Positions 5,345-64,000 of a DNA stretch of 64,000 nt are shown piece by piece. The DNA lies in NCBI GenBank assembly GCA_965113315.1, contig OZ220367.1; one strand, written 5' to 3'. The notes below the pieces were generated by a model. The model saw only the letters and a list, made by a program, of their open reading frames with translations. It had not been told where the DNA came from and ran no database searches. The stretch's first letter is position 1. The number at the start of each line of letters is the position of its first letter. A program made the translations under genes and the position numbers. This stretch comes from Podarcis vaucheri (Eukaryota).

Positions 5345-5665
5345 ACATCTTAATGACTATCAAAATTATTATGGCAGCTGCTTTCATGGGCTAAAACTCA
5401 CTGTCAGATGGATGATGTAAAATCTTTATAGGTATATAAAGGTGCCTATTTAAGACATACCGGTATTTAAGTTGTAGTTATCACTGACTGTAATTTTTGC
5501 ATTTAATTGCCATTTTACTCCCATCTTACAATTATCTCCTTTACATACCTGCCAATTGATATTTAACTTCATGCATCTGATGAAGTGTTTTGAGTCCATG
5601 AAAGTGATTGCCATGATCAATTTGTTAGTCTTTGAGGTGACAGAATGCTGCGGCTGCTACTTTTA
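5345..5665. mobile_element. Inverted pair of Penelope-like terminal repeats, with a hammerhead-like core in the plus copy
   Basis: The reverse complement of 5351-5415 aligns with 5568-5633. The plus copy has CTGATGA (5577-5583) and GAAA (5600-5603). Confidence 0.65.
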
Positions 5666-6802
5666 CTACTAATATAATTATTATTTAGATATCATTCACC
5701 TTAAGATTACAAAGTGGTTTACAACACTTAAACACCATGCTAAAATGGTTTAAAACAATGTACAATCATAAAAATAAGATTGGACCTAAGCATCTACATC
5801 TCAGGTATTAATAACCAGACTAGACTCTCTTTTTTCAAAAAAAGAAAAAGACCGCACGACTCTTAAAAATACATATAAAATAACAACTGTTGATTATGAT
5901 GTCCTATGGCCCACCCTAAGACCCCTGGGAGAAAGTCAAGATGCAATTTAATAGCTAAATAAAATTAAACCATACATTTTCTCAAGAAAATGAAACTGCC
6001 TAATACTTGATGCAACTCTAGTCATAATATATTACTAAAGTCATCGATCGCAAAAGAGCATAAGACATACATTTTCCATTATTCATTGCAGATGTTTCTA
6101 ATGTCTCTAACTACGTTTAAATGATGCATTTAAGGACAGCAGAGCAGTCTGCCCAAAGCTTGAAAGCGTTTCTTCTGCTTGATGAGTTCTAAACCTAAGA
6201 TCAAATGTCAGCATCTCTAGAAATGCAGTAATTAGGAGCTCCCGTTAATTCCTGCTCTTTTAAAATAAAATAAAAGCCCAGTTGCTAAGGTACAAATTGA
6301 GTTAGGAAAATTCAGAGAATTTGGATTTCCCATTTACTCTGAATATCTCTCTCTATATATAAATAACCCCAGAAGAATCATACATTGTGTGTGAGCTAGG
6401 CCTCACCAATAAAAATAACTTACTTGAAAACTGTATTTGAAAAATAAATGAACGAATAGTTCACCTGCTTTTTACAGCACGGATAACTTGAAGGCTGCAA
6501 CCCCGTGTATACTTATCTGGCAATAAGCCCAATCTAACATAGTGTGATTTACCTTCAAGAAAACATGTACAGACTTGCATTCTAAGAGGTTGCCAGCAGG
6601 CAAATATTAAGTGGCAGAGATGAGCAGAAGCTCAATTGGTAGACCTCTTGCTGATTTGCAATAGATCAGCAAGGAGTTCTGATTCCCAATAGTTTAATAT
6701 AAGCAAGTAAAAAAACAAAAAACTTTCATACAGCTTGCCTTGGTGCTAATCACTTTTTTCTCATTCTTGGTGTTCCTTGTTAATTGGTTGCCTTTAACAA
6801 GG

Positions 6803-7807
6803 CAGTGCTTTTTTTTCCTTTAAAAAAAATTTTAGGGGTACTGTCAGAGCTGCCCAAGGTCCCAGCTCACAAAGGACCAATGCCAGTTCGTTGTTACATA
6901 CAAAAGTCTTTATTGAAGTTCAGTTTCGCTTCCACAGCTGCAGCGTGCAGCTCTACGTCTGAAACTCTAGACCGCCGAAGCTCCGTCTGAATCTCCTCCC
7001 CCCAGACACCAGTTTAAGACTCTAGCCTTGCTCCACCTCTTCCTTTGCTCTTTCCTCCTCTGGCTCCGCCTGTCAGCTGGGGTCTCCCCCTTCCTAGACT
7101 CTTCTGACGCTGAGTCCCCTGAGTCTTCCCCCTGCCTCCGGCGGGCTTTAGGACCTGGTTCCCAATCCGGGTTTTCTGCTGTCCCACGCGCCTGTACATT
7201 CGAACTTGGCGCGCGCGCCCAGCCGGCAACCTTCATCCTGACCGTTACACTGCTCCTGTCACTGCTTCCCCCTTCGGGGAGGCTAGCTGGACCTGACCTC
7301 CCCTCCGTTCCCCCACTCTCCGATAGAGGCGTGGTCAGCCCTGACTCATCTTCTTCCCCTGCTGGAGGAGACGCTTGCCCTGACACATGGGACTCTTCCC
7401 CCCCACTACGCTCTGGTGGGGAAGCTGGTCCTGATCTCCCGCTGCTGCTTTGGGAGTCCCCGCTGGCCCCTTGTTTCTGGTGTGTCTCCCCGGGACCCCC
7501 CTTGCCCTGACCATCGGCGCCTCCTTCTGGGAATCTTCTGATTCGCTGGAGAAGCTCATGGAATCTCTCGGGCCACTGTCATACTCCCCTACGCTGCCCT
7601 CAGATTCTTCCCCTTCGCTCTCCATTTCCTCTCTCCCCTGTACCTCTGTTCCTGAGCCCCTGACAGGTACTCTCATTTTTACTCAAGAAAATCACCATTT
7701 TATACTTCAAATCAGGAAAAATAAATACAGTAAATGGACAAAAGTACAAAGATTGACAAAATGTTTAGGGGTATGCGAATCCCTGTGTACCCCCAGAAAA
7801 AGCACTG
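6803..7807. mobile_element. Non-autonomous hAT DNA transposon (MITE) interrupted by a solo LTR
   Basis: TIR cagtgcttttt / aaaaagcactg; 8-bp TSD taacaagg (6795-6802) / taacgagg (7808-7815). Confidence 0.85.
6842..7665 (-). mobile_element. Solo LTR (probably Gypsy-type), 824 bp
   Basis: TGTCAG...CTGACA termini, perfect 5-bp TSD ggtac (6837-6841 / 7666-7670), AATAAA on the minus strand near 6909-6914. CpG-rich, so probably young. Confidence 0.85.
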
Positions 7808-8130
7808 TAACGAGGTCCTTGTGCAGTTCTGGAATAGGCAGTTTTAGAATTTTCATTAGAATCCCTGACCTGTAGTTACTACAGAAGCAAAGATTTTAAC
7901 ACAATTTGTGTGTTGTGCTTAGATAGACAGGTAATCCAATTATATGGCTGAAGGAGTATAGAAACTGATTGGCACTGCCCCCAGAGACACAATTTTCACT
8001 CAGTTTCGGCTAGGGGACCAAGTGCACAGTAATCAAGCAGATCCCTTGAGCCTGAAGTCTGCCTGATCCTGTAGTAGCACTAAGAAATTTGGAGCGTGTC
8101 CAGAGATACATATACAACTCAGCTTCGACA

Positions 8131-9399: not shown

Positions 9400-9880
9400 G
9401 CAGTGAGATCACCTAAACTGCCTCCCTGTTGTGGAGCGGGGCCATTTGGATAGCCACAACACCCCATTGGTTGCCCCTCAGTTGCTGGGACAGAAATTTG
9501 GCCTGTTGGGTCATCTATTGGCTACCAAGGGGCTATTTAAGCTGCTGCAAGTTGCTGGGAGCTTTCTCTTTCATGCAATGTACATCAGATCACCTGCCCT
9601 CCCACCCTATATTTAGGGCTGTTCTTTGGCCTTGCTATGCCTGTCTAGGGGTTGTCTGTTTTGGAGCAGGGACCCGGTAGGAATTTTGCCATTTGGCTGA
9701 TTGGCTGTCGCCATTTGGTTTTTGGCTACCGTGTAGCAAATCGTCACAACTTTGTAAGGTTGGCAGTTAGGCATTGGTTCAATGTTGCAGAGGGGAAGTA
9801 GTTGGCTGTGCCTGCCCCTCCATTGCTGTTGCTAGGGAATTCCATTTAAGGAATCCAGGGACTTGCTAATTGCTAATCCA
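9400..9880 (+). mobile_element. LTR-like retroelement repeat, copy A (3'-truncated; possibly DIRS/Ngaro-type)
   Basis: TATA-like ggggctatttaag near 9530. Shares the core ggtaggaattttgcc...ggtttttggctacc..tagcaaatcgtcacaacttt...ttaggcattgg with copies B-D. Family assignment is inference. Confidence 0.6.
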
Positions 9881-21959: not shown

Positions 21960-22775
21960 GGTTATTGCGTGATCAGGTTGCAACAGCCACAGCCCCCAGA
22001 GATCACAAGAAAGGAATAAAGACTGACAACACGTTATGGAATTAAAATTAGGCCACAACTTTATTAAACTTCCAAATGTAGGAAGAGCTTGGCTTAGGCC
22101 TTTGGCGTGTACCCCTCCCAGCCCCCCAGCCGGGGGAACTAGGGAACACCAGGGTAAATGGGATATGGGGGTGCACTGAAAGACGTATGTGTGGCAGGCA
22201 GCCCAGCCCATATCGCCGCAGTCAGGGTAGTTCACTGACAGCCTTTCGGTGTATGGCCAGTGACACCCATTATATAACCCCTTTTAAGAGGGGACCCTGG
22301 AATCAACGCTGCAGGGGGGTGAGTCACCACTTCACACACACACACACACACAGTATAGGGAAGAAAAGACTAAAGGATTCCACCCAAGGCCATAAACCGC
22401 CAAAGTTGTGACGAATTGCTATGGGGAAGACAAAACCTGCCAATGCAGGAAAATTTCTTCCTAGTCATTCAACAGCAACCAGTCAAAGACCACAGCAGGG
22501 CCCACTAAACAGGAAGAAAAAGTTAACCTGCAAAGAAGAAAACATTAAACTAAGGGAGGGTAGGCTGGGAGAATCTCCTAAGCCGACTGCCTGGCTACTG
22601 TTGGCTCCACCCCCATATATAAATGGGGCTGGCCCCACCTCCCAGCATTGAAACTTGACTACTGAGGCAGGGCATGAACCTCCAAATGATAACACTGAGA
22701 GGCAGGGCAGTCTCTTTTTGCCATTAAGTTCCCTGGGAACTTTAGCACCGCACGCGATCCCACAAAGGGCACCCA
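21960..22775 (-). mobile_element. LTR-like retroelement repeat, copy B (best preserved; possibly DIRS/Ngaro-type)
   Basis: On the minus strand: TATA-like tttatatat (about 22623-22615), ENE-like core (22461-22425), AATAAAGTTGTGGCC (22065-22051). I saw no TG..CA ends or TSD. Confidence 0.65.
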
Positions 22776-24070
22776 CAATATAAAGTGTGAGTGCTCATTG
22801 TCTGTGCTCATAGGTGGTGGAGAATGTGCATTGAAGGGGCTAGAGCCATCAGGACAATCTCACCCCCTCACTGTGCATGTGTACAGTTCTCTAACACGTT
22901 GTTCCTCGACACATGATTTCAACATAGCCAATGGGGTGTAGTCTTTAAGGGGCTGGATTAGGACATGGGAGAGCAGGGTTCAAACCTCTGTTCATTCTTG
23001 AAAATCCTGAACTGTAATTTCTCCAAGTGCCAGTCCAGTCTGCCAATTCCTTCTGCTGCAAATTGCTACTGCTGAAGGAGTGGTCAGTTTCCCAAGTTTC
23101 TAGCAGTGTGAAGTTCTGTGCATTTCTACTTCTCTCAAATCATTTCCTGACTTAACAAGGCTATTGAAGTCTGAGATAAATAACAGACTCCAGGAAGCAA
23201 CATCAGCACACTTTTATGTTGTTTTAAAATGTGGAATTATTACATTTGGAAATAAATGTCACACTCAGCATATTATTATAGCACTGGCCAGTGAAACATA
23301 AAGTAAAAATTGGGGAAAACATTATGGGGACCCAGAAATTGTAGCAATAAAAAATAAAATGAATGGAGATGAGAGGGAGGGGGGAACACACAAATAAAAC
23401 AGAGCAATTATTCCTCACTCATAGCCAGTAAAATAGGACAGCGAAGTAAATTATTCCCAGACAATATTCAGATAATAGCTTGAAGATACACAGTGCATCT
23501 CTATTCTTGCAACTGTGAATTAAATCCCCAGGTTTTGGGCTAAATGTCTCATCATCTCTGCCCATTAGCCATGTTGCCAGGGGCTGATGGGAGTTGTAGT
23601 CCAAAGCATGTGAAGAGCATCAGGCTGGGGGAGTACTCTATAAACTTTGTGGCTGTGAAATTGCCTAGTAACAATATATTAGCCACATTATGCACCTCTG
23701 AGCAAGAGTAGAGTAAAACTGCAGCCAACCAACTAATCAGTCAATCAGTCTTGTACCTCTATTCATTCTTTTCTTTGTAATCAGCAGGCATCCGAGGCTG
23801 CTAACATTAGGTTAAAGAGCTGAACTACTGTTTTGTTTTTTAAAAAAAGGAGAGACCCAACTTAATGACTTAATTCTGGGAGGGGGAATTCTACCTAAAG
23901 CCAGCCATACAGACAATTTCCACCATTATTTTACTAAGGGAATTTTCTAAGAAAACTTCAATGTTAAGAGCATGTTAAAATGTATGCAAATCCTGTGATT
24001 AATGCATCTGTGCATGTCACAACAACTATTTATGTATACAGTGTGGAAATTAAATATATGAATAAACTCA

Positions 24071-33110: not shown

Positions 33111-33262
33111 AAGCTATAGCTCCATGGTAGAGCATCTGCTTTGCATGCAGAAGGTTTGAGGTTCAATCCCCAGCATCTCCAGGTAGGACGGGGAGAGTCC
33201 CCTGCCCGAAATCTTGGAGAGCTGCTACAAGTCATTCTCAGTCTAAGGCAGCTCCCAATGAA
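33111..33262 (+). mobile_element. tRNA-derived Squam3-like SINE (other copies near 31795-31970 +, 44097-44285 +, 44310-44465 +, 51160-51320 -, 53866-54052 -)
   Basis: tagctccatggtagagcatctgctttgcatgcagaagg...ggttcaatcccc head followed by ggagagctgct. Confidence 0.75.
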
Positions 33263-34729: not shown

Positions 34730-35460
34730 TGTAATTCAGTCTGTCATCGGATGTCCCAACCGCCCTCCCTGCATGTTTGGCCCTACCTGAAGATGAACAG
34801 GCAGAGCATGTTCGTGACTTGCTATTCTTTTCAGTAGCCTTTCTGCTAAATGCTTGGCTAGTGTAAAGGTTGTGTTAGTTACTCTGTGGAACAGAGATGG
34901 GCAAGTAATCTGGCTGTCAACATCCTGTTTCCTGTTTCCTGCTATTGAACCAATTAATCACTGTATTCAACGCCAGGGAGGAATTTGCCTGCAAACCAAT
35001 TAGGCTGGGCTGGGGGTTTTGCCTACCTCATAGCAACCATCACAACTTGTGTGGGGGGGAGGCATTGGGTTGGATCCTTAGCCTAAACAAGGGGGGGAAT
35101 GAGTCTTTAACCCTCTCTCAGGATCAAGTATCAAGGATATCCCAGTAAAGAAGTCCAGGAGGAAAGTTTTTGCCCAAATGGGGCTAAAGGGCCACAGAAT
35201 TCCTAATGGCGTCCCAGGAGGATCGCTCCATTTGATGGGCATTAGGGTGCAAACCTTAACCCAAGATCAACCCTAATGTGTTAATCAACCAGCACTCAGT
35301 CTCATTGATTCAGAATACATACCCAATGCCTAAGCCAAAACTTACTTACATCTGTAATCCATAAAGTTGTGGCCATTTCAATCCCAAGACATTGTCAAGA
35401 CATTTCTTCTGTTTGCTGAGCCCTGGCCCAGGAGGTTCTGAGCTCACTGTGCACAGGCCC
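34730..35460 (+). mobile_element. LTR-like retroelement repeat, copy C
   Basis: Core gggaggaattt...ggttttgcctacctcatagcaaccatcacaactt (34976-35048) and ataaagttgtggcc (35361-35374). Confidence 0.6.
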
Positions 35461-43315: not shown

Positions 43316-44526
43316 TGCAGGGACAAAGACAGAGACATTAGTGTGGGTGAGGAGCATTAGCTTGCTCATTTCTGCTTACATGCTGGTTTTACACATGATC
43401 TCAGAAGCAGGCCACCATCAACTGTGTACTGTTATGCTGCTGACTGACTATATGTCATTCCTTTGTTGCACAATAAGCTAGAATGGGCTGCTGACAGGTA
43501 ATAATGGTTAGGAGCTTTCTGTCCAATGAAATACCTGTTGGAAATATATTCTTCAGATATGCCCAGTGCACTAGCCCAGTGTATCAACACTTCAGAAAAA
43601 GCTGTCTTTTGTTGTTGTTGCCTATGCTGATGTTTCTTTCTGAAATATATTCGAATGTGTGTGTATTGCCTGTTGAATTCATTGTTAATGATTGTGTGTG
43701 TGTGTGTGTGTGTGTGTGTTTGTTTGTATGTGTGTGTGTGAGAGAGGGGGGTGCTGTGTTGTGAGCTAACCTGTAAATACCTAGCATTAAGCACACAAAA
43801 TTCCTTACTAACCTAGTCTGAGGATGCTTGTGGAATTAGATTTCATGGATTCTGATAATGTGAAGAATGCAACAGAACTTTCTGTTGGCTTTTAATTTTC
43901 ACACATATTCTGATGCAGGTTTTTGCCTTTTTGGGGCGGGGGGGGGCAAAACTAAAATATATTTGTGCCTTTCTTTTGATTCACCCATCCATAATCTAGG
44001 TTTGATGAATGCCAGCCACAGATTAGGCCATCAACTTGAAATACATCTTCTTATTAACTGAAGACTGAGCGTTGCAAGGTAAAAAGAATGATAATGGGGC
44101 AGAGCCATCGCTCAGTGGTGGAACAACTGCTGTGCATGCATATGCTTCAGGTTCAGGCTCCAGGTTGGGTTGAAAGAAACTCCTGCAAGAAACCCTGGAG
44201 AGCTGCTGCCAACCAGTGCAGAAAGGCCTGAGGTATATGGACTAAAGGTCTTACTCATTTTAGGGCATCTCCCAATGGTCCTATGTGTACAGATTAAAAT
44301 ATTAATGAGGAAGGACCTTGCATGCAGAAGGTCCCAGGTTCAGTCCCTGGCATCTTCACATAGAGCTGGAAATGCATTTAGTCTGAAACCCTAAAGAGTC
44401 ACCATTAACATGGACCAATGGATCTGACTCTGTGACTCCAGGAAATGCAGTTTCCTATGATCCTAATGATAAACCAATATTGCATATTCTTATTATGAGC
44501 CAATTATTTGTGAATTTCATCAGCAT

Positions 44527-45180: not shown

Positions 45181-45965
45181 CATTGTGTGGCAAGGCATCC
45201 CCCCCGCCCTTTGGACTGCCCCAATTTCCAAGAACCAAGAGGGATGACAACTAGTGTTTTGGGTTAAAACTGGGCCACAACTTATTACAAACAGATGTGA
45301 GATGTTTGGCATAGGCATTGGTTGGAAAAACCCCTCCCACCTCCAGCCCACCTGTCAAAGGACTTACATTGGGGTCAACTGGAAGTGAGGAATTCCCTGC
45401 TGGGTAACTCCTCTACTGGATTGCACCTGGGGAGTGCTGTGGTCCCTCACCCCCACCTGGGCATCTGGACAAAAGCATCTCCCCTGAATCCCTTTAATGG
45501 TATCATCCATTCTCAGATGGGCAGGCAGAGGCTACAACTTCCCCTCTGTCCAAGACTGCTCAACCAGTGCCTAAACCACCAAAGTTGTGATGATTGCTCT
45601 TAGGATGGCAGAAACCAGAAGGCTGGAGCCAATTTACCAAATGGGGAAACTCCAACTTGGCCCTGAATACGGTGACCAACTATGCCTTGGTCCAGCAGAG
45701 CAACATGAAACAGCAATGTAGGGGGGAGGGGCGGAGATCCAACTAAGAAATGGCTGCAGCGCAAGCCACAAACCTTATTTATATACTCCCCCAGGAGAGG
45801 TCTGCCCACATGCTCGTTCGTGATTTGCCAATTGAGACAGCGGGCAGGATCTGCTTCCCTGGTAGCAAGCCTAGCCCAGGAACCTCCTTTGCTGCTCAGA
45901 AGGTATCCCAAGGGCAGGGGAATGCCAAGCCACAATGGCACACACCAAGATGGGTGAGTGGTCCT
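45180..45965 (-). mobile_element. LTR-like retroelement repeat, copy D
   Basis: On the minus strand: tatataaata (about 45785), degraded ENE-like core 45657-45603, tcacaacttt 45590-45581, aataagttgtggcc 45286-45273. Confidence 0.6.
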
Positions 45966-52200: not shown

Positions 52201-55200
52201 ACTGTAATTTTGAGAAGTGGAATTCATGCTTCATCCTTCAAGCTAAATGGAATCCCTAAAGCAACAGGCCTAAATTTCTGAATGTGCTGCCATACCACTT
52301 CTCAAGCTGATTGGGACAAAATAACTCTTTACTTCTGTAGAAAGCTCTGCATGATTGGAACACGAATCTGGGATGTTATTCAACAAAGTAATTCCACTAG
52401 TGCAAAGACTTTTGGCTGTGAAATTGAACTTCCCCTCTCTTCTCCCCGCATGCTCTCCACAACCCCAACTAAATCTGTTTTGGTTTTCCTCCCAACCCTC
52501 CAGAGCAGATTGGTGAATATGAGATGAAGTTATGCTGCACAGGTGGAAATCCACTAGTGGAAGTATGACACTGTGGACAACTCCAGCTGTTCTAATGAGA
52601 CATAATGAGCTGGACTGGGCTTTCTGCTCAATCAACTGAGTGCAACATTTGGTTATGGGGGGGAAGGCTTGATATCAGGGGCAGAGCTAAAAGCACAAGT
52701 GACTCTCTGAGTGAAACAGAATCCCAGACTAGCATCCCAGAAGCTGGGTTGCTGTTGCTCACCAAGAGAGAGAGAAGTGCTGAAGTAGTAGGAGGCTGGT
52801 GCAGTGCAAACACACCAGCAGAAGTGCTGGATTGGCTCAGTTGGTCTGTTTGAATTGTTCAACCTCCCCTCTGCCTTGTTCCTGGCTGTCCCCATAAGCA
52901 ACGGCAACCCACCTGTTAAGAAGCTAGCACAGCAGCACCACACCACTTGGTGAACCATTTCTGGCTAAAAGCATGGCCCCACTCTTGGCTCTAGATGCAT
53001 ATGCCCTGCACACAAGTAATGTGTGAATAAGTCTACAGATTATGAAACATACAGGGGTCCTGCTTGAGTAGTGTAGGGGATACCAGCTGCAAAGGTTCAG
53101 CTCCAATTTGGGGGAGATTGCAGAGACTTGTCAGAGGGGCTAAGGCCAACAGACCCGTCTGGGCTTTCCCCGCTTGCGTAATGGCAACATTGAAGCTGGG
53201 ACACTCATGCAGGTCAATAATGCAACAGGACATTTCTTAAAATCTTGTGTCTGACTTCACCATCTCAGCTGTTGACTAAGTATGTTTGGTTAATAAATTT
53301 TAAGCCTAATAGGCCAGATTCTGACATTACTTTAGCAGTACAATTTAACAGCTTCCATCATGCATGCTAGTAGCTGGATATCCTGTTCCAAAAGTAATGT
53401 TGAAACCATCATCACTGCAGTTTGGGTGATTTTCTAAAGATTTTGGTCTATGGTGACAAACTTTCAAGCTAATAATTCCCGTCTGATAATAACCAATCTT
53501 GCTCCATCCAAACTGTGCATGAGACTGGTATTTAATTACCTAAACTTTACATTAAGATCATTAGGCAGCAGTTTATTATACCCCAGAGTGTCTTAGCAGT
53601 ATAATGAAATAGCTCACTTGAATTATCAAAATGTTTTCCCCCCTGAAAGAATCAACCTCAGAGAATGTTCCGTTCCTCATTCTCCCCTTTCCCTAAGCAT
53701 CCACAGAATGTCCATTTCATTCCACGATGTGATTTGTTTAATCATGACACATTGAAATAATGTGTAGCCTTTTTCTTTCAAAAACAGATAGATAATGGAT
53801 AATAGTCTGTTCTTATAGGATCCACGTGATGTGCTGAATACAGGTCACCAGTGATGTTGGGCATAGGGACATTAGAAGCTGTCTTCTACTGAGTCAAACC
53901 ACTGTTCCATCTAATTCAGTATTGTCAACACTAATTGGCAGTGCCTCTCTGGGGTTTCAGATGAAACATTCCCAGCCCTGCCAGGAGATTCTGGGGACTG
54001 GACCTGGAACCTTCTGCATGCAGAGATGCTCTACTTCTGAGCTATGGCCCTTTCCCAATTTAACCAGGTGGAGAAGCAAGATATGTGTGTCTACTACATG
54101 TTGAGTCCAACATTGCCATGGTTGCAGCAAAAAAATTGTGAGGCAGCCTTGACCATATGGCTAAAAGATGCAGACATCTCCCTCCCTCCCTCCCTCCCTC
54201 CCTCCCTCCCTCCCTCCAGGTGATTAGAACTGCTTTTAAGCAGATGTTAGATGGTTAGGAGATATCTGATTCTACCCTAGGAATCTGCTGTGTGAACAGT
54301 CCATCAGTAAGAACCAATTAGTTCACACAGCCAGGGCATACATTTATGGTCACTTTATCACTTTTATCCCTACTATGCCATAATTCTCTTTTCAGCATCT
54401 AAAAAGTGTTGGAGAGCTCCCCAGCCATTCCACAGAAGACAAGGCGAAGCAAAGAGGGAAAGTGCTTTTGCATCCAAGCAGCCTAAATGGGAAAGCTAAT
54501 TGTCCCTCTGATTACAATACGTGGGAGAAGTTGTGAACAAAGCAGGAGAGTTATGAGCAAGGGAAAAAGAGGGCCCCATTAGAAAACCATGCCTGGTGTT
54601 TCCTATATCTTGGTGTGTGATGTAACATATACAACATGTCAGATTCAAAAAATAGGCACACTAAGCAAAACATAATCTAAAGAAGACTATATGAGCAATG
54701 TGTAAAGCAAATGGATTTCCATTCTGAATTTGATTAGCTGGCTGGACTTGAAAAATACTGGGGGGTCGGTCAATCCATCACAATTTCAGCAAAGTTTCAA
54801 ACAGATCAAATTTGCCATGAAGAACACCCATGGTGGAGTGAATGAATTCATTTCCTGTTCATTGGGGGTGGGGGGAGGTGGTTGGAGATATTTGTTACTT
54901 CTGCTCCTGTCAAGTAGTAGTTTCTTCATTGGAAGAAAAGGTAGAAATAGTAATAATAAGAAGAAGAACAGGGAGGAAACAAACCATCATTTGCTTTTGT
55001 TTTCCTGGTGCAATGTATGATTTATGTTATGGTAAGGTCACTTCTGTAACTCAATCTGATTCCTGTGCATTTGAAATAATAATATGGATTTACTGCATAT
55101 GCACTACTGTTATGTATGTGCTCAGGAAGTCTTTTCTCTCAAGAGAACCATTTTCGCAATAATTCCCATTCTAGGCTCAAGCTCAACAGCTTCCATTTCC

Positions 55201-58355: not shown

Positions 58356-61300
58356 TTATAATTCATATAATTTATAAAACTTTTGCAAATAGTCCTTAAA
58401 TTTTTTCCATTCCTCCTCCATTACTTCTTCTCCCAAGTCTCGGATCCTGGCAGTCATCTCAGCCAATTCCATGTAGTCCATAAGCTGCGTTTGCCATTCT
58501 TCCAGTGTGGGCAAATCTTGAGTCTTCCAGTATTTTGCTATAAGAATCCTTGCTGCTGTAGTTGCATACATAAAAAACGTTCTATCCTTCTTTGACACCT
58601 TTTGGCCGACAATGCCCAAGAGGAAGGCCTCTGGTTTCTTAGGGAAGGTGTACTTAAACACCTTTTTTAACTCGTTATATATCATTTCCCAGTAGGCCTT
58701 CACCCTAGGGCATGTCCACCACAGGTGAAAGAATGTCCCTTCGGCCTCTTTACATTTCCAACATTTATTATCAGACAAATGGTATATCTTAGCAAGTTTG
58801 ACTGGGGTCATGTACCACCTGTATATCATTTTCATGATGTTTTCTTTCAGGGCATTACATGCCGTAAATTTCATACCGGTGGTCCATAACCTTTCCCAGT
58901 CTTCAAACATAATGTTGTGCCCAGTATCTTGAGCCCACTTTATCATGGCCGATTTAACTGTCTCATCCTGAGTATTCCATTTAAGCAGCAAGTTATACAT
59001 TCTAGACAATAACTTAGTCCTAGGTTCTAACAATTCTGTCTCTAGTTTCGATTTTTCCACCTGAAAACCTGTATTTTTTTTATCCGTCTTAAATACCTCT
59101 TGAATTTGGGCATAATGAAACCAATCTTGCACCTTGTCTTTTAATTTTTCAAAACTCTGTAATCTCCAGTTGTCTCCAATTTTTTCTATTATTTCGCTAT
59201 ATGTCGGCCAGCCGGCCTCCATATTGGATCTTTTCCGCGCCTTGGCCTCCACTGGTGAAAGCCACCTCGGGGTCTTACTTTCTAACAAGTCCTTATATTT
59301 TGTCCAGACTATAAAAATTGCTTTTCTGACAATATGGTTTTTGAACATTTTATGTGTTTTTACCTTGTCGTACCACAAATAGGCATGCCATCCTAAAGAA
59401 TTGTTAAACCCTTCCAGATCTAGGACATCAGTGTTCTTAAGTAAAAGCCAATCTTTCATCCAGCAGAAGGCTGCAGCTTCATAATATAACCTTAAGTCTG
59501 GCAGGGCAAACCCCCCTCTTTCTTTTGCATCAGTTAAAATTTTAAACTTTATTCGGGGCTTTTTGCCCTGCCAAACAAACTTCGAGATATCCTTCTGCCA
59601 TTTCCCAAAACATTCCACTCTGTCCACGATCTGTAAGGCTTGAAACAAAAATAACATCTTTGGCAACACATTCATTTTTATCAGTGCTATTCGGCCCAAC
59701 AAGGAAAGTTTCAATCTTGTCCAAATTTCTAGATCTTTTTTCACCTCTGTCCAACATTTTTCGTAATTATCTTTAAACAAATTCAAGTTTTTTGAAGACA
59801 AGTTAATCCCCAGGTATTTCACCTTTTTCACCACATTTAATTCTGTTTCCCTCTGAAACCCATCTATTTCCAAAGATGTCAAGTTTTTACCCAGCACCTT
59901 GGTTTTTTGTTTGTTCAACTTAAATCCTGCCACCCGACCAAACTCCTGAATCAATTCTAGAACTCTTTTTGTACTAGATTCTGGCTCCTGTAATGTCAAA
60001 ACCAAATCATCTGCAAAAGCTTTCAGTTTATATTGTTTCTCTCCGACCTGTATACCTTGTACCTGCCGGTCCTTCCTAATCATATTCAAGAGCACCTCCA
60101 GGACCGAAATAAATAATAAGGGGGAGAGAGGGCACCCTTGACGTGTTCCTTTTTCAATTTGAAACTCTTCTGTCACCACATTGTTCACTATTAACTTAGC
60201 TTTCTGTTCTGAATATATTGCCTCTAAACCATTTTCAAATCCCCGTCCCACTCCCATCCCTTCCAAATTTTTCTTCATAAACCTCCAGGAAATGTTATCA
60301 AAGGCCTTCTCCGCATCAATAAAAATTAACACTGCTTTGGTGTTAATGTTAGTTTGCAAAAGTTCCAAGACATCTATAATGTTCCTGGTATTATCATACA
60401 AATGTCTGCCTGGGAGAAAGCCTGCCTGGTCCTTATGAATTACTTCATTCAGAACCTTTTTAAATCTATTTGCCAAAATGTCTGCAAATATTTTGTAATC
60501 CACATTGAGGAGTGAGATGGGACGATAATTCTTTAGTTGAGTCTTTTCAGATTCCACTTTAGGAATCAATGTAATGAAAGCTTCTTTCCACGTTTCTGGT
60601 GCTCTCCCTCCATCCATAATCTGGTTACAAACCTCCATTAAGGGTTGTATCAAATAGTCTTTTAGTATCTTATAATACTTGGAGGTAAGTCCGTCAGGGC
60701 CTGGAGATTTGCCCAACTGCATATTCTGAATGGCAACCTCAATTTCCTGTTGTGTTATTCTATAATTCAAGATTGATCTCTTTTCCTGAGAAAGTTCTGG
60801 TAGGCCATTGGTTTTCAAAAATTGATCCATCTCGAACACTTCCTCGGGTCCTTGCGTGTACAGTTTTTTAAAATATTTCTGGAAGCACTTTCTAATTTCA
60901 CCTGGTTTCTGGATATTTTTCCCTTCAACCTCTAGATTGGTAACATAGTTCAATTTTTGTCTTTTCTTCAACTGCCATGCTAGCAGTTTCCCACATTTGT
61001 TCGCTGATTCAAAAGATCTTTGTTTCATTTGTTTAATTTTCCATTCCACTTCTTGGTTTATCAATTTCATATATTGTGCTTGATGGAATTTAATTTCTCT
61101 CAAAATCTCTTTTGATTTCGGGTTAGATCTCAATTTTTTCTCACCATCTCTTATCTTCTCTAATATCTTATCCTTTTTTCCATTCCAGAGCTTTTTCTTA
61201 ATTGTGTTCTGTTGTATCAGAAACCCTCTCATTACAGCTTTACTTGCATCCCAGATTGTTCTCTTTTCCACCGAGGTGTTCAAATTTATTTCAAAATAGT

Positions 61301-62099
61301 CTTTTAAAGCTTTTTGGGCCTTCTTTACAATCTCTTGATCTCTTAACAGGTTGTCATTCATTTTCCATCTGAAGGAACCGGATGGAGTAAATCTTAATTC
61401 CACTTTCAGAGCGTTATGGTCGGAGCAGGTTTTTGGGCAGATTTCCACTTTTACAGTCTTAGGTGCCAGCCCTCTAGTTACCCAAATCTGGTCGATTCTT
61501 GTCCAAGATAAATGGGCCTCAGAGAAGAACGTTCCCTCTTTACCTAGGGGGTTCCTTGTCCTCCAAATGTCAATCAAATCCATATTGTCAGTCAGTTCAA
61601 AAAAGGTTTTAGGTAGTCTGCCGTCTTTAGTCAAGTTTTGATTCTGCGACTTGTCCATTAATGTAGAGACCACTCCATTCATATCTCCCATCATAATGAT
61701 GTTAGTATAGTCCAGATAGTCCAGCAATGTCTCATGCAGTTTCTTATAAAATTCCGATTTCCCCTCATTTGGTGCATAAATTCCTAATATCAAAACTTTT
61801 TCACCCTGAGTTTGTATTTCAATTGCCAAAATTCGTCCATATTCATCTTTAAACAAAAATTTTGGTGACAAATTCTCCTTTGCATAGATCACTACGCCTC
61901 TTTTCTTGACTCTGTCCGATGAAATAAATTCTTGGCCCAATCTTTTATTTATTAATACTTTCCTTTGGAGTCTTGTCACATGTGTTTCCTGAAGACAAAT
62001 TATATCCAAATGTTCTTTTTTCAAAATATGAAAAATCTTTCTTCTTTTCTCCAGGGAATTTGCACCATTAATATTCCAGCTGTACAACTGCAGAGACAT
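58356..62099 (-). CDS. L1 ORF2 (APE endonuclease + reverse transcriptase + CCHC), 1247 aa, uninterrupted
   Basis: Endonuclease motifs SWNING, LQETH, GDMN, RIDQIW, SDH; RT motifs YRPISLLN, DAEKAFD, QGCPLSP, FADD, YLG; C-terminal CWKC..HLWWTC. Confidence 0.97.
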   Translation of the reverse strand: MSLQLYSWNINGANSLEKRRKIFHILKKEHLDIICLQETHVTRLQRKVLINKRLGQEFISSDRVKKRGVVIYAKENLSPKFLFKDEYGRILAIEIQTQGEKVLILGIYAPNEGKSEFYKKLHETLLDYLDYTNIIMMGDMNGVVSTLMDKSQNQNLTKDGRLPKTFFELTDNMDLIDIWRTRNPLGKEGTFFSEAHLSWTRIDQIWVTRGLAPKTVKVEICPKTCSDHNALKVELRFTPSGSFRWKMNDNLLRDQEIVKKAQKALKDYFEINLNTSVEKRTIWDASKAVMRGFLIQQNTIKKKLWNGKKDKILEKIRDGEKKLRSNPKSKEILREIKFHQAQYMKLINQEVEWKIKQMKQRSFESANKCGKLLAWQLKKRQKLNYVTNLEVEGKNIQKPGEIRKCFQKYFKKLYTQGPEEVFEMDQFLKTNGLPELSQEKRSILNYRITQQEIEVAIQNMQLGKSPGPDGLTSKYYKILKDYLIQPLMEVCNQIMDGGRAPETWKEAFITLIPKVESEKTQLKNYRPISLLNVDYKIFADILANRFKKVLNEVIHKDQAGFLPGRHLYDNTRNIIDVLELLQTNINTKAVLIFIDAEKAFDNISWRFMKKNLEGMGVGRGFENGLEAIYSEQKAKLIVNNVVTEEFQIEKGTRQGCPLSPLLFISVLEVLLNMIRKDRQVQGIQVGEKQYKLKAFADDLVLTLQEPESSTKRVLELIQEFGRVAGFKLNKQKTKVLGKNLTSLEIDGFQRETELNVVKKVKYLGINLSSKNLNLFKDNYEKCWTEVKKDLEIWTRLKLSLLGRIALIKMNVLPKMLFLFQALQIVDRVECFGKWQKDISKFVWQGKKPRIKFKILTDAKERGGFALPDLRLYYEAAAFCWMKDWLLLKNTDVLDLEGFNNSLGWHAYLWYDKVKTHKMFKNHIVRKAIFIVWTKYKDLLESKTPRWLSPVEAKARKRSNMEAGWPTYSEIIEKIGDNWRLQSFEKLKDKVQDWFHYAQIQEVFKTDKKNTGFQVEKSKLETELLEPRTKLLSRMYNLLLKWNTQDETVKSAMIKWAQDTGHNIMFEDWERLWTTGMKFTACNALKENIMKMIYRWYMTPVKLAKIYHLSDNKCWKCKEAEGTFFHLWWTCPRVKAYWEMIYNELKKVFKYTFPKKPEAFLLGIVGQKVSKKDRTFFMYATTAARILIAKYWKTQDLPTLEEWQTQLMDYMELAEMTARIRDLGEEVMEEEWKKFKDYLQKFYKLYEL

Positions 62100-62123
62100 C
62101 CTGGATCGATCTGTTGTTACTCT

Positions 62124-62828
62124 TTATGGAGTGTCCTCCTTTTCTTTCGAGCCCGAGGGCAAAGATGATGGATCTACTCCAAGCGGTAGTGGTGGCCAAG
62201 GGATGGTTATCCCCTTCTGTAGGTCCTCTCCGTGGTCGTGCAGGAACTTCTGGGAGTCTTCTTGCGTTTTGATTTTAATTTTCTTTCCCTTATATGTAAA
62301 TGATAACCCTTGAGGAAATTCCCACCTATAAGGTATCCCGTTGCCTCTCAGTAATCTTGCTAGGTCCGTGTAAACAGCCCTGAGGTCCAAAAGTTGTTTT
62401 GGTATATCCTTGTAAATTTCGGCTTTCCTGTCTTGGAACTCAAGTGGTTTCTTAAAATGAAGGTCTAATATCTTGTCTCTCTCCTGTTTTGATCTCAAAA
62501 TAATCAAGCAGTCCCTGGGTCTGTCCTTCCTTGTTGCTCTTCCCAATCTAAATGCAGTTGATATTTTAAAGTCCTGGTCAACTTTTATATCCCAGAATTT
62601 GGAAAACTCCTCTGTCAAATAACCAGTCAAATCTTCTTTCTCTGATTCTGGGATAAAGCGGATTCTCAAATTATTTTCCCGGTTTCTCAATTCGATCAAA
62701 GACAGGTAAGCCTGCTGGTCACTGATATGTTTATGTAGTGGCCTTACTTCTCCCTTTATTTCCTGAATTTCTTTATTTGCTTGTTCAGCCTTCGAATTTG
62801 CAGCCTCAGCTAATTTCCGATTTTGTGA
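62124..62828 (-). CDS. L1 ORF1, C-terminal part (coiled-coil end + RRM/CTD), no start codon
   Basis: Frame is open from the 5' junction: SQNRKLAEAANSKAEQANKEIQEIK...ELRNRENNLRIRFIPE...FRLG...IYKDIP...YRWEFP. Its stop lies 24 nt before the ORF2 ATG. Confidence 0.85.
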   Translation of the reverse strand, partial: SQNRKLAEAANSKAEQANKEIQEIKGEVRPLHKHISDQQAYLSLIELRNRENNLRIRFIPESEKEDLTGYLTEEFSKFWDIKVDQDFKISTAFRLGRATRKDRPRDCLIILRSKQERDKILDLHFKKPLEFQDRKAEIYKDIPKQLLDLRAVYTDLARLLRGNGIPYRWEFPQGLSFTYKGKKIKIKTQEDSQKFLHDHGEDLQKGITIPWPPLPLGVDPSSLPSGSKEKEDTP

Positions 62829-62830
62829 TA

Positions 62831-64000
62831 CAGGATCTCAGATAAGTTTTGGCGCCAAGTGGTGTTCTTTTGAAAAGATACAAAGGCTTGTTTGGCCAAT
62901 AAGGTGTTTGAAGTGTTTGCAAGATTGATGTAAAATCGTAGGAATCTTAAGTGGGCCCTGGCAGATACAGAGGGTAATCCAACCTCCACCCTCAAGAAAG
63001 CTGCTGGGGTTCCTTGAGGAAGGCCTAGAATCCTCTTGAGATAATAATTTTGCAAAAATTTCAAGCTGTTCCAACAGCCTCTGGTTCCACCCCCAGAGTT
63101 CTATCCCATATAACATCTGGGGGATAGCTTTCCCAACAAAAGCTCTTAATGCCGGGATCACCAGTTGTCCCCCCCTGGAATGGAAGAAACTAAGCAAAGC
63201 ACCAATTGTTCTTCGTGTTAAAATGGTTACAGCCTTAAAGTGGGCTAGCCAACTAGATGTAGCCTGGAATGTAACACCCATATATTTAAAAAAAGGACAC
63301 TGTTCAATCACATGTCCATCTAAAGACCATCTAGAGATGTGGCGAGCTCTAGTGAACACCACAATTTTTGTTTTGTCATAGTTTATCTTTAGTGAATTAT
63401 GGGAACAGTAGGCTGCAATCCCCTCCAGCATGCTGCGTAAGCCTCTTCGGGTGAGTGCCATTAAAGCCATGCCATCGGCATATAGCAATATATTCAGGCA
63501 TTTACCTTCAAGGGCTGGAGCCGATGACTTGTACTTTGCCATGTACTGAACAATGTCGTTTATATAAAAGTTAAAAAGAAATGGGGCTAGCAGGCATCCC
63601 TGTTTGACCCCTTTCCCCAATGGCAGTGGGTCTGTAAGAGTTCCCGATGGCCCAGTTCTGATTTTGACTGTAATGTCTGTGTGTAGCTCTCTGAGAATTT
63701 TTAAAAGTCGTCTATCAATGTCCGTTTCATATAATTTTTTCCATAGTCTATCTCTACAGATTGAATCGAAGGCAGATGTCAAGTCAACAAAGGCCACAAA
63801 GAGTCTGCTCTTATACGCTTTTGCATATTTAGCTACCAAGGTCTGTAGTACCATGCATGCAGTGACCTATCGTATTGTGGCCCTTTCTAAATCCTGCCTG
63901 TTCCTGGTTGAACAGGTTAGAATGGTCCGCCCAATCTAAAGCTGATAGTAATAGTTCGTCATAGTCATTGGCAGCCTTCTCTTCTTTTTGTCTGTCGCAA
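62831..64000 (-). pseudogene. RTE-X LINE RT region (continues beyond the window)
   Basis: EQAGFRKG, FVDLTSAFD, GVKQGCLLAP, YADG (catalytic YADD mutated), FKYMG. Frameshift near 63060. The reading frame resumes across the L1 TSD into 57943. Confidence 0.88.

Follow-up and report, generated by a model that had tools for sequence, protein, structure and literature searches.

Position-specific long-range helices predicted around the poly(A) signal of a Ngaro-type tyrosine-recombinase retrotransposon

Introduction

Related repeat copies (A to D) in a stretch of 64,000 nucleotides from Podarcis vaucheri (contig OZ220367.1; the window) raise the question of what two nested pairs of distant complementary segments, one of which overlaps an AATAAA hexamer, might do in the RNA, and to what kind of element they belong. 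The original prediction, made from the letters of the window, was a conserved fold-back that delivers the 3' end or poly(A) tail to an ENE and may occlude the poly(A) signal, with strand transfer or circularisation during replication as the alternative. Here, the window copies were compared with their genomic relatives, and the helices, the ENE-like hairpin and the poly(A) signal were placed within the architecture of the full-length element.

Methods

For the covariation analysis, 149 units were reduced to 136 by excluding seven loci in which the arm had been called falsely, along with those units whose spacing fell outside 280-400 nt; L164, one solo unit nested in the start of another solo's B repeat, and L234, a locus of B1 type with a false arm call, were also excluded. 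The 136 units form 27 clusters defined on the loop alone, by which relatedness is only partly corrected for. Anchored counts were used in place of MAFFT columns; MAFFT had misaligned the inner arm of family B.

For the architecture of full elements, the genome was searched for the tyrosine-recombinase (YR) family, and 18 of the 65 matches were taken at 9.9 kb each. The control for arm enrichment consisted of 120 motif loci from metagenomes, apparently unrelated. RNA was sampled from four raw-read runs of 2026 from related or the same organism, with 6-12% of each run read and 56-264 reads per query. Statements with a PMC number refer to excerpts of the articles concerned.

Results

The copies in the window are solo units (A-spacer C-B) of a tyrosine-recombinase retrotransposon of Ngaro type, the full form of which is A1-ORFs-B1-A2-C-B2. 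This order was found in the YR loci, with two B repeats in 11 of the 18 and both A1 and A2 visible in 8 of those 11; all 18, chosen on the YR protein, carry the outer 3' arm described below. The ORFs comprise gag-like, RT and YR reading frames plus a weak GDSL/SGNH ORF. Both elements scanned gave matches to RVT_1 (E 1.6e-13 and 4.8e-14) and Phage_integrase (E 4.5e-8 and 4.1e-7), the SGNH hydrolase ORF after YR gave GDSL-like matches under the curated cut-off (E 3.3e-4 and 0.011), and no methyltransferase family was among the matches of the 8 ORFs scanned. In 7 of the 18 YR loci (L052, L056, L058, L059, L061, L062 and L065), ORFs are accompanied by one B without A2-C-B2, the expected outcome of recombination between B1 and B2.

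Copy B (21964..22799, minus strand) is a solo A-C-B unit of 836 bp running from 22799 to 21964 with termini AATG...GCAAT, assigned to a split-direct-repeat YR element on the basis of 30 aligned copies and the architecture. It has at least 40 relatives at 85-89% identity; among the 30 aligned copies, 28 begin with AATG and 18 finish with CAAT, and no flanking duplication was evident by eye. A reading as LTR/ERV solo was rejected on the termini (AAT..CAA(T)), the lack of an evident duplication and the presence of related units in YR elements. The B repeat of copy B matches that of an A-[YR-SGNH]-B element (78% over 146 nt, 89% over 35 nt), the repeats of which are 94-97% identical to sister solos; through the matches with L387 and L407, the clade of copy B is thus tied to YR/SGNH coding. 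L407 itself has the structure A-[YR fragment-SGNH]-B (G000:C1:31594000-31603500, minus strand 5437-7854); this member of the clade has undergone internal deletion and lacks gag, RT and A2-C-B2. No two-B element was found in copy B's own family: the junction pattern gave 0 matches, and no pair about 800 bp apart occurred among the 100 places listed out of 532. YR alignment found no distant relatives in metagenomes, and Rfam gave no match at gathering score in these units. Probably the window solos arose by A1-A2 recombination, and the window copies are probably inert leftovers of recombination that keep the B2 geometry.

Within copy B, and all on the minus strand, the promoter-like repeat A occupies 22545..22799, its inner boundary being estimated from the 255 bp of a sister subfamily. 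It contains a TATA-like box at 22616..22621; in 7 of 8 full elements, such a motif occurs 55-60 nt before A ends. At the A/C border, a splice-acceptor-like tract (22551-22525; branch-like A, pyrimidines, CAG) is retained in family B and sister families. In spacer C, helix P0 (22417..22497; 22497-22491 with 22423-22417), present in both MFE and centroid structures, closes a domain that holds the ENE-like hairpin (22425..22461), a predicted fold with a U-rich internal loop that occurs in spacer C only; in the alignment, the P0 arms appear complementary across subfamilies. The final bases of spacer C, directly ahead of repeat B, form the outer-helix 5' arm (22402..22412). Repeat B, in its B2 context, spans 21964..22402 by architecture, with the match to the B of L407 beginning at 22402. 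It carries at its start the inner-helix 5' arm (22381..22391) and, towards its end and in order, the inner-helix 3' arm (22097..22107), both inner arms being defined by pairing and covariation, a segment (22067..22093) that in full elements is the partner of the B1 arm and in copy B stays largely free of such an arm, the AATAAA as putative poly(A) signal (22060..22065), the outer-helix 3' arm (22052..22062), which overlaps the hexamer, as originally noted, at its last three A, and a GU/U-rich tract as putative downstream element (22011..22032). A further hairpin within B (window 22294-22276, minus strand; L051 about 7860-7885 and equivalents) has a conserved (G/C)TTAAA loop and stems that vary between subfamilies.

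Copies C (35040..35372, plus strand) and D (45275..45590, minus strand) each belong to an old family, and their hexamers have decayed to CATAAA and AATAAG, respectively. Copy A (9743..9779, plus strand; arm at 9744-9752) retains only the outer and inner 5' arms, the 3' half of its B being absent, and is 77% identical to young full elements. Elsewhere in the window, a LINE coding region lies at 58356-63866 (minus strand; a 1255-aa endonuclease-RT ORF and an upstream RT fragment) and a tRNA-derived repeat head at 33117-33172 (plus strand; Rfam tRNA, 34 bits), with relatives at 44319-44402 and 53941-54048.

All six long-range complementarities that had been proposed for copies B, C and D are present. 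The outer helix of copy B comprises 11 of 11 pairs with one U-G, and the gap of 12 nt between the ENE-like stem, ending at 22425, and the outer arm at 22412 is correct. The inner helix of copy B stood as well, and the bulge assigned to it gave way to a better, ungapped 11-bp register (22391-22381 with 22107-22097) with one G.A mismatch; the mismatched A (22103) is private to copy B, with C in 27 of 29 family copies. In copy C, the outer helix (35040-35048 with 35364-35372) pairs at 9/9 and the inner helix (35061-35070 with 35321-35330) at 10/10 positions. For copy D, the inner helix (45573-45561 with 45324-45312) has the 12 of 13 pairs claimed; its outer helix is more exactly 9 contiguous pairs (45590-45582 with 45283-45275). 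The MFE structure of copy B contains both helices, the ENE-like hairpin and P0 (z -2.43; opposite strand -2.67), with an outer-pair probability of about 0.8. For copies C and D, predicted folding does not surpass that of shuffled sequences (z +0.40 and -0.45), the helix probability in copy C being 0 or 0.74 depending on the window folded.

Across subfamilies that share the position of the helices, the loops do not align. The original report of a compensatory A-U/C-G change between copies was upheld, and it extends to covariation at three positions of the inner helix. At the position first noted, five multi-copy clusters have A-U, one has C-G and one U-A, and one subfamily has a C.U mismatch; the adjacent pair is U-A or C-G. 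Pair 10, which lies beyond the motif anchors, forms in 114 of 124 units, and each of the four Watson-Crick types occurs there. Cognate partners give better inner-arm pairing than swapped ones in 22 of the 27 clusters (mean -4.5 kcal/mol) and in 8 of 8 multi-copy clusters, and the sense duplex is better than the antisense duplex in 97 of 136 units. Covariation and cognate advantage of the inner helix together support the conserved fold-back. The base of the inner helix is exactly where repeat B begins in every two-B element listed, which allows this helix to form at both B1 and B2. In solos of the L172/L174/L185 type, the inner 5' arm shows a mismatch to its usual partner, and an alternative register of 9 bp lies a few bases further downstream.

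The outer helix differs in its placement. Its 5' arm precedes B2 in 27 of 27 and B1 in 0 of 27 two-B elements, one further double-arm site being a nested solo; since this arm lies in the unique spacer C, the outer helix is possible only at B2. When sites were chosen on the 3' 15-mer alone, the 5' arm was found 250-420 nt upstream in 63 of 93 genomic and 5 of 73 metagenome sites; the remaining genomic sites comprise 5 of B1 type and 25 others, several visibly interrupted. As the copies share ancestry, this enrichment reflects conservation and not independent events. Among 30 loci chosen on the inner arm, 25 carry both outer arms with 8-10 of 10 pairs. Both outer arms are sequence-invariant, and the base after the 3' arm is also invariant yet unpaired, which points to a sequence-specific role. 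A two-sided change was found in none of the outer-helix pairs among the 136 units, most of which were chosen on these motifs (the 18 YR-selected loci were not), and cognate arms had no advantage over swapped ones (mean +0.1). Of 60 units picked from the 136, 59 were folded; the outer-helix probability exceeds 0.5 in 31 of these 59 and in 13 of 26 clusters, the antisense strand giving 17 of 59. For its first bases, the arm has an alternative, local partner further upstream in spacer C. The U-G wobble is kept in 130 of 132 units and the sense duplex is better than the antisense duplex in 120 of 136; any outer pairing would thus take place in the sense RNA, and the arms are not copied from one another. 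The near-invariant wobble disfavours the alternative role in templated strand transfer, and self-priming on the outer helix was rejected on the same evidence.

Ahead of B1, a different arm takes this place. It overlaps the last codons of the hydrolase ORF and is followed by a small hairpin, and its region gave 351 genomic matches against 1 in the control. In several clades, this B1 arm pairs over about 22-26 bp, its partner being the segment that separates the inner helix from AAUAAA. Among 42 B1 contexts, the cognate partner beats swapped ones in 7 of 9 clusters (mean -7.5 kcal/mol), and the sense duplex is better in 39 of 42; six clusters reach -34 to -38 kcal/mol, mostly including the first three bases of the hexamer, and the largest young cluster (21 of 42) pairs only in the proximal part, at about -20 kcal/mol. 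The B1 arm covaries by clade, and for L230/L242 the non-coding partner matches a coding change in the arm. L387, which came up through a different motif, belongs to copy B's clade and has the structure A-[YR-SGNH]-B, with a B1 arm of different sequence, which forms 22 bp of contiguous helix with its own segment (-31.7 kcal/mol; 0 of 1000 shuffles as good) and stops short of the hexamer; with the segment of window copy B it reaches -29.5 kcal/mol, against a mean of -12.8 for 42 segments of other clades. A B1-arm pattern predicted for copy B's family, demanding strict Watson-Crick pairing, gave 5 matches, all unrelated; unlike this pattern, the L387 arm has a wobble and a bulge. The small hairpin upstream of B1 (e.g. 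L051 about 6960-6980) has a near-invariant stem and a variable loop and lies between two TGGCGG copies; in L387 its stem is extended. Identical B repeats therefore likely fold in two ways, according to their position.

The ENE-like hairpin is, like the outer 5' arm, confined to spacer C ahead of the terminal B2. It was parsed in 96 of the 136 units, with U tracts of 3-6 nt, and both sides of its lower stem change between clusters, so that the stem covaries. The predicted fold is that of a single-domain ENE hairpin, weakly so in clades, including a sister clade, where a strand has only 2-3 U. An AGCAA tract, which we take to resemble the built-in third strand of MALAT1, was considered for such a role and dismissed; it pairs with the upstream P0 arm and does not covary with the U tract. 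Reportedly, Tycowski 2016 includes one fish ENE, which may belong to a Ngaro.

The 15-mer that holds AATAAA has 8995 exact genomic matches, compared with 2 for the reversed control, and in the 136 units the U content peaks 40-60 nt past the hexamer, in a U/GU-rich tract. Together with the TATA-like box near the end of A, hexamer and downstream tract fit a Pol II unit. Accessibility was compared between B1 and B2 in 22 two-B elements. Mean unpaired probabilities of the hexamer are similar at the two repeats, with no greater accessibility at B2, where the last base of the hexamer is unpaired at 0.16, as against 0.55 at B1. The 10 nt upstream of the hexamer, which bear UGUA, are less accessible at B1 than at B2 in 7 of 7 long-arm elements, those of the CTG(T/A)A-type clades, and are shut at B1 and open at B2 only in those seven; the first three bases of the hexamer are sequestered at B1 in only five of them. 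A hexamer hidden at the skipped site and free at the used site is not the pattern of these 22 elements, and a clean on/off switch of the poly(A) site between B1 and B2 is not shown by these predictions.

In the four RNA runs, no peak of read ends was found at the signal, and none of the reads listed had a loose poly(A) end. In run X24, strongly strand-biased reads (sense, if the library is of the usual stranded kind) span a whole solo unit from flank to flank; the unit read through its poly(A) signal is of the L122 subfamily. None of the indexed datasets recorded as RNA contains the element, and a search for polyadenylated retrocopies gave 1 match, an internal A run with B continuing beyond it.

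Discussion

The reading that we favour, at about even chances of being right, takes the elements by analogy to carry a 3'-end module, in which the outer helix possible only at B2 would clamp the RNA so that its tail sits, protected, beside the predicted ENE. Such a delivery fits the confinement of both hairpin and outer arm to spacer C ahead of B2. Transcription would start near the end of A1, and a genome-length RNA, to contain the B1-A2 junction, should run through B1 and terminate in B2. The arm ahead of B1 would zip up the segment 5' of AAUAAA, in some clades running into the hexamer, and thereby weaken the internal site. At B2, the arm in spacer C would skip this segment and pair 3' of it, leaving about 10-20 nt between the base of the helix and the cleavage site. 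The inner helix at B2 would fold away some 300 nt, and the outer helix would leave the presumed cleavage site and the U-rich loop no more than some 25-35 nt of backbone apart, where a tail beside the spacer-C ENE would be protected, by analogy with the Evade ENE (PMC12501189, and the review PMC13541005, as excerpted). That the two unique arms jointly constitute a position-encoded 3'-end switch, with read-through at B1 and a clamp onto a poly(A)-protecting triple helix at B2, is a bolder proposal that we advance tentatively, thinking it rather more likely to fail than to hold.

Two other explanations seem to us unlikely, in equal measure. In the first, the arms act only on the choice or strength of the poly(A) site, as in HIV, without binding the tail, and the outer helix damps the signal of B2. 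The helix does nearly always touch the hexamer, pairing 2 of its bases in 62 of 121 units and at least 3 in 43, with the three A of copy B paired at about 85%; the sense-biased X24 reads pass a solo signal into the flank, and there is a retroviral precedent (PMC12789967). It would, however, block the very site that has to end the genome RNA, it pairs one hexamer base or none in 16 of 121 units, the X24 read-through may represent intronic or nascent host RNA of a related organism, and the adjacent U-rich loop is left unexplained. Of the occlusion first suggested for the outer helix, the contact with the hexamer thus stands, and the sequestering is weak, with a median of 2 of 6 nt paired; moreover, the outer helix sits at the repeat that needs to be used, and it is instead the B1 arm that extends as far as the hexamer or enters it.

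The second explanation sees in the helices a fixed mark of sequence plus structure for replication or packaging, placed where B starts and recognised by Gag or RT in priming, template switch or encapsidation. It draws on the exact coincidence of the start of B with the inner-helix base, on the invariance of both outer arms and the unpaired flanking base, and on the primer of the DIRS order, given as unknown in the excerpt of PMC7192593. Against it, copying one arm from the other, as for the exactly complementary ICR of DIRS-1, would erase the retained U-G wobble, and the hexamer that the 3' arm overlaps is canonical, with a GU-rich tract behind it. A non-templating role in replication or packaging may exist. 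Least probable, and in our judgement quite improbable, is that the outer complementarity is incidental to two motifs conserved separately (one as hexamer context, the other as a protein site or for local pairing in C), for which the missing covariation, the half of the units that do not fold the outer helix and the local partner in C would speak, and against which stand a match of 9-11 bp that keeps register with the covarying helix nested inside it and recurs at one position despite unalignable loops, and the sense-strand bias of the wobble.

Should the 3'-end module operate as we propose, a long-range helix that parks the tail beside the ENE would add a delivery step to ENE biology. The roughly 9000 exact copies of the signal-bearing motif in the genome mean that the module may affect the ends of host transcripts. 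The two position-specific arms provide concrete, mutable bases. The literature searched contains no description of how YR elements with split direct repeats end their genome RNA and pass a first, identical signal, and in that on Ngaro elements no position-specific helices at B1 and B2 were found. Nothing relevant was found either on Ngaro elements with a triple helix, polyadenylation signal or RNA secondary structure, the original Ngaro papers, Tycowski 2016 and Torabi 2021 lying outside the scope of the search. The combination of an outer helix restricted to B2 with a covarying, B1-specific arm thus appears new, its function being a proposal; the kinds of structure are known, and a prior description is possible.

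Among known systems, the closest in architecture is the Ngaro superfamily, for which excerpts describe A1-ORFs-B1-A2-B2 repeats with gag-like, RT and YR reading frames and a hydrolase ORF (PMC9210276), as well as isolated AB units (PMC8547959); SIRE is likewise an A2-B2 remnant of VIPER (PMC6681497). Repeat order, ORFs and solo AB units are common to our elements and to Xenopus DIRS-53_XT and the Cafeteria Ngaros. Here, in contrast, a unique spacer of about 165 bp separates A2 from B2 and carries the ENE-like hairpin and the arm.

The ICR of DIRS-1, like the outer arm, is a unique internal stretch of a YR retrotransposon complementary to a stretch of terminal repeat. It measures 88 bp, is exactly complementary and serves as template (PMC7192593, excerpt), whereas the arm here has 10 nt, a fixed wobble and no match to the element ends: it is not an exact complement of both ends, and its partner lies about 90 nt inside the end. 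With retroviruses, the elements share two identical poly(A) signals, the first of which has to be passed. The HIV-1 polyA hairpin is a structure implicated in retroviral poly(A)-site occlusion (PMC12789967); the partner arms described here lie instead outside the repeat, about 300-370 nt upstream, differ by position and pair the hexamer only in part.

The ENE of the Arabidopsis retrotransposon Evade lies in the 3' spacer and protects the tail (PMC12501189). According to the excerpts, Evade and KSHV PAN RNA ENEs likewise have a U-rich internal loop between G-C-closed stems; they precede the poly(A) site within 3' non-coding spacer, as the hairpin here would precede its putative signal (PMC12501189, PMC13541005). 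Compared with these, the hairpin described here has a single short loop with 2-6 U per side, belongs to a vertebrate YR element and may form a triplex by analogy; it lies about 350-400 nt upstream and is tied to the 3' end by the predicted long-range helices.
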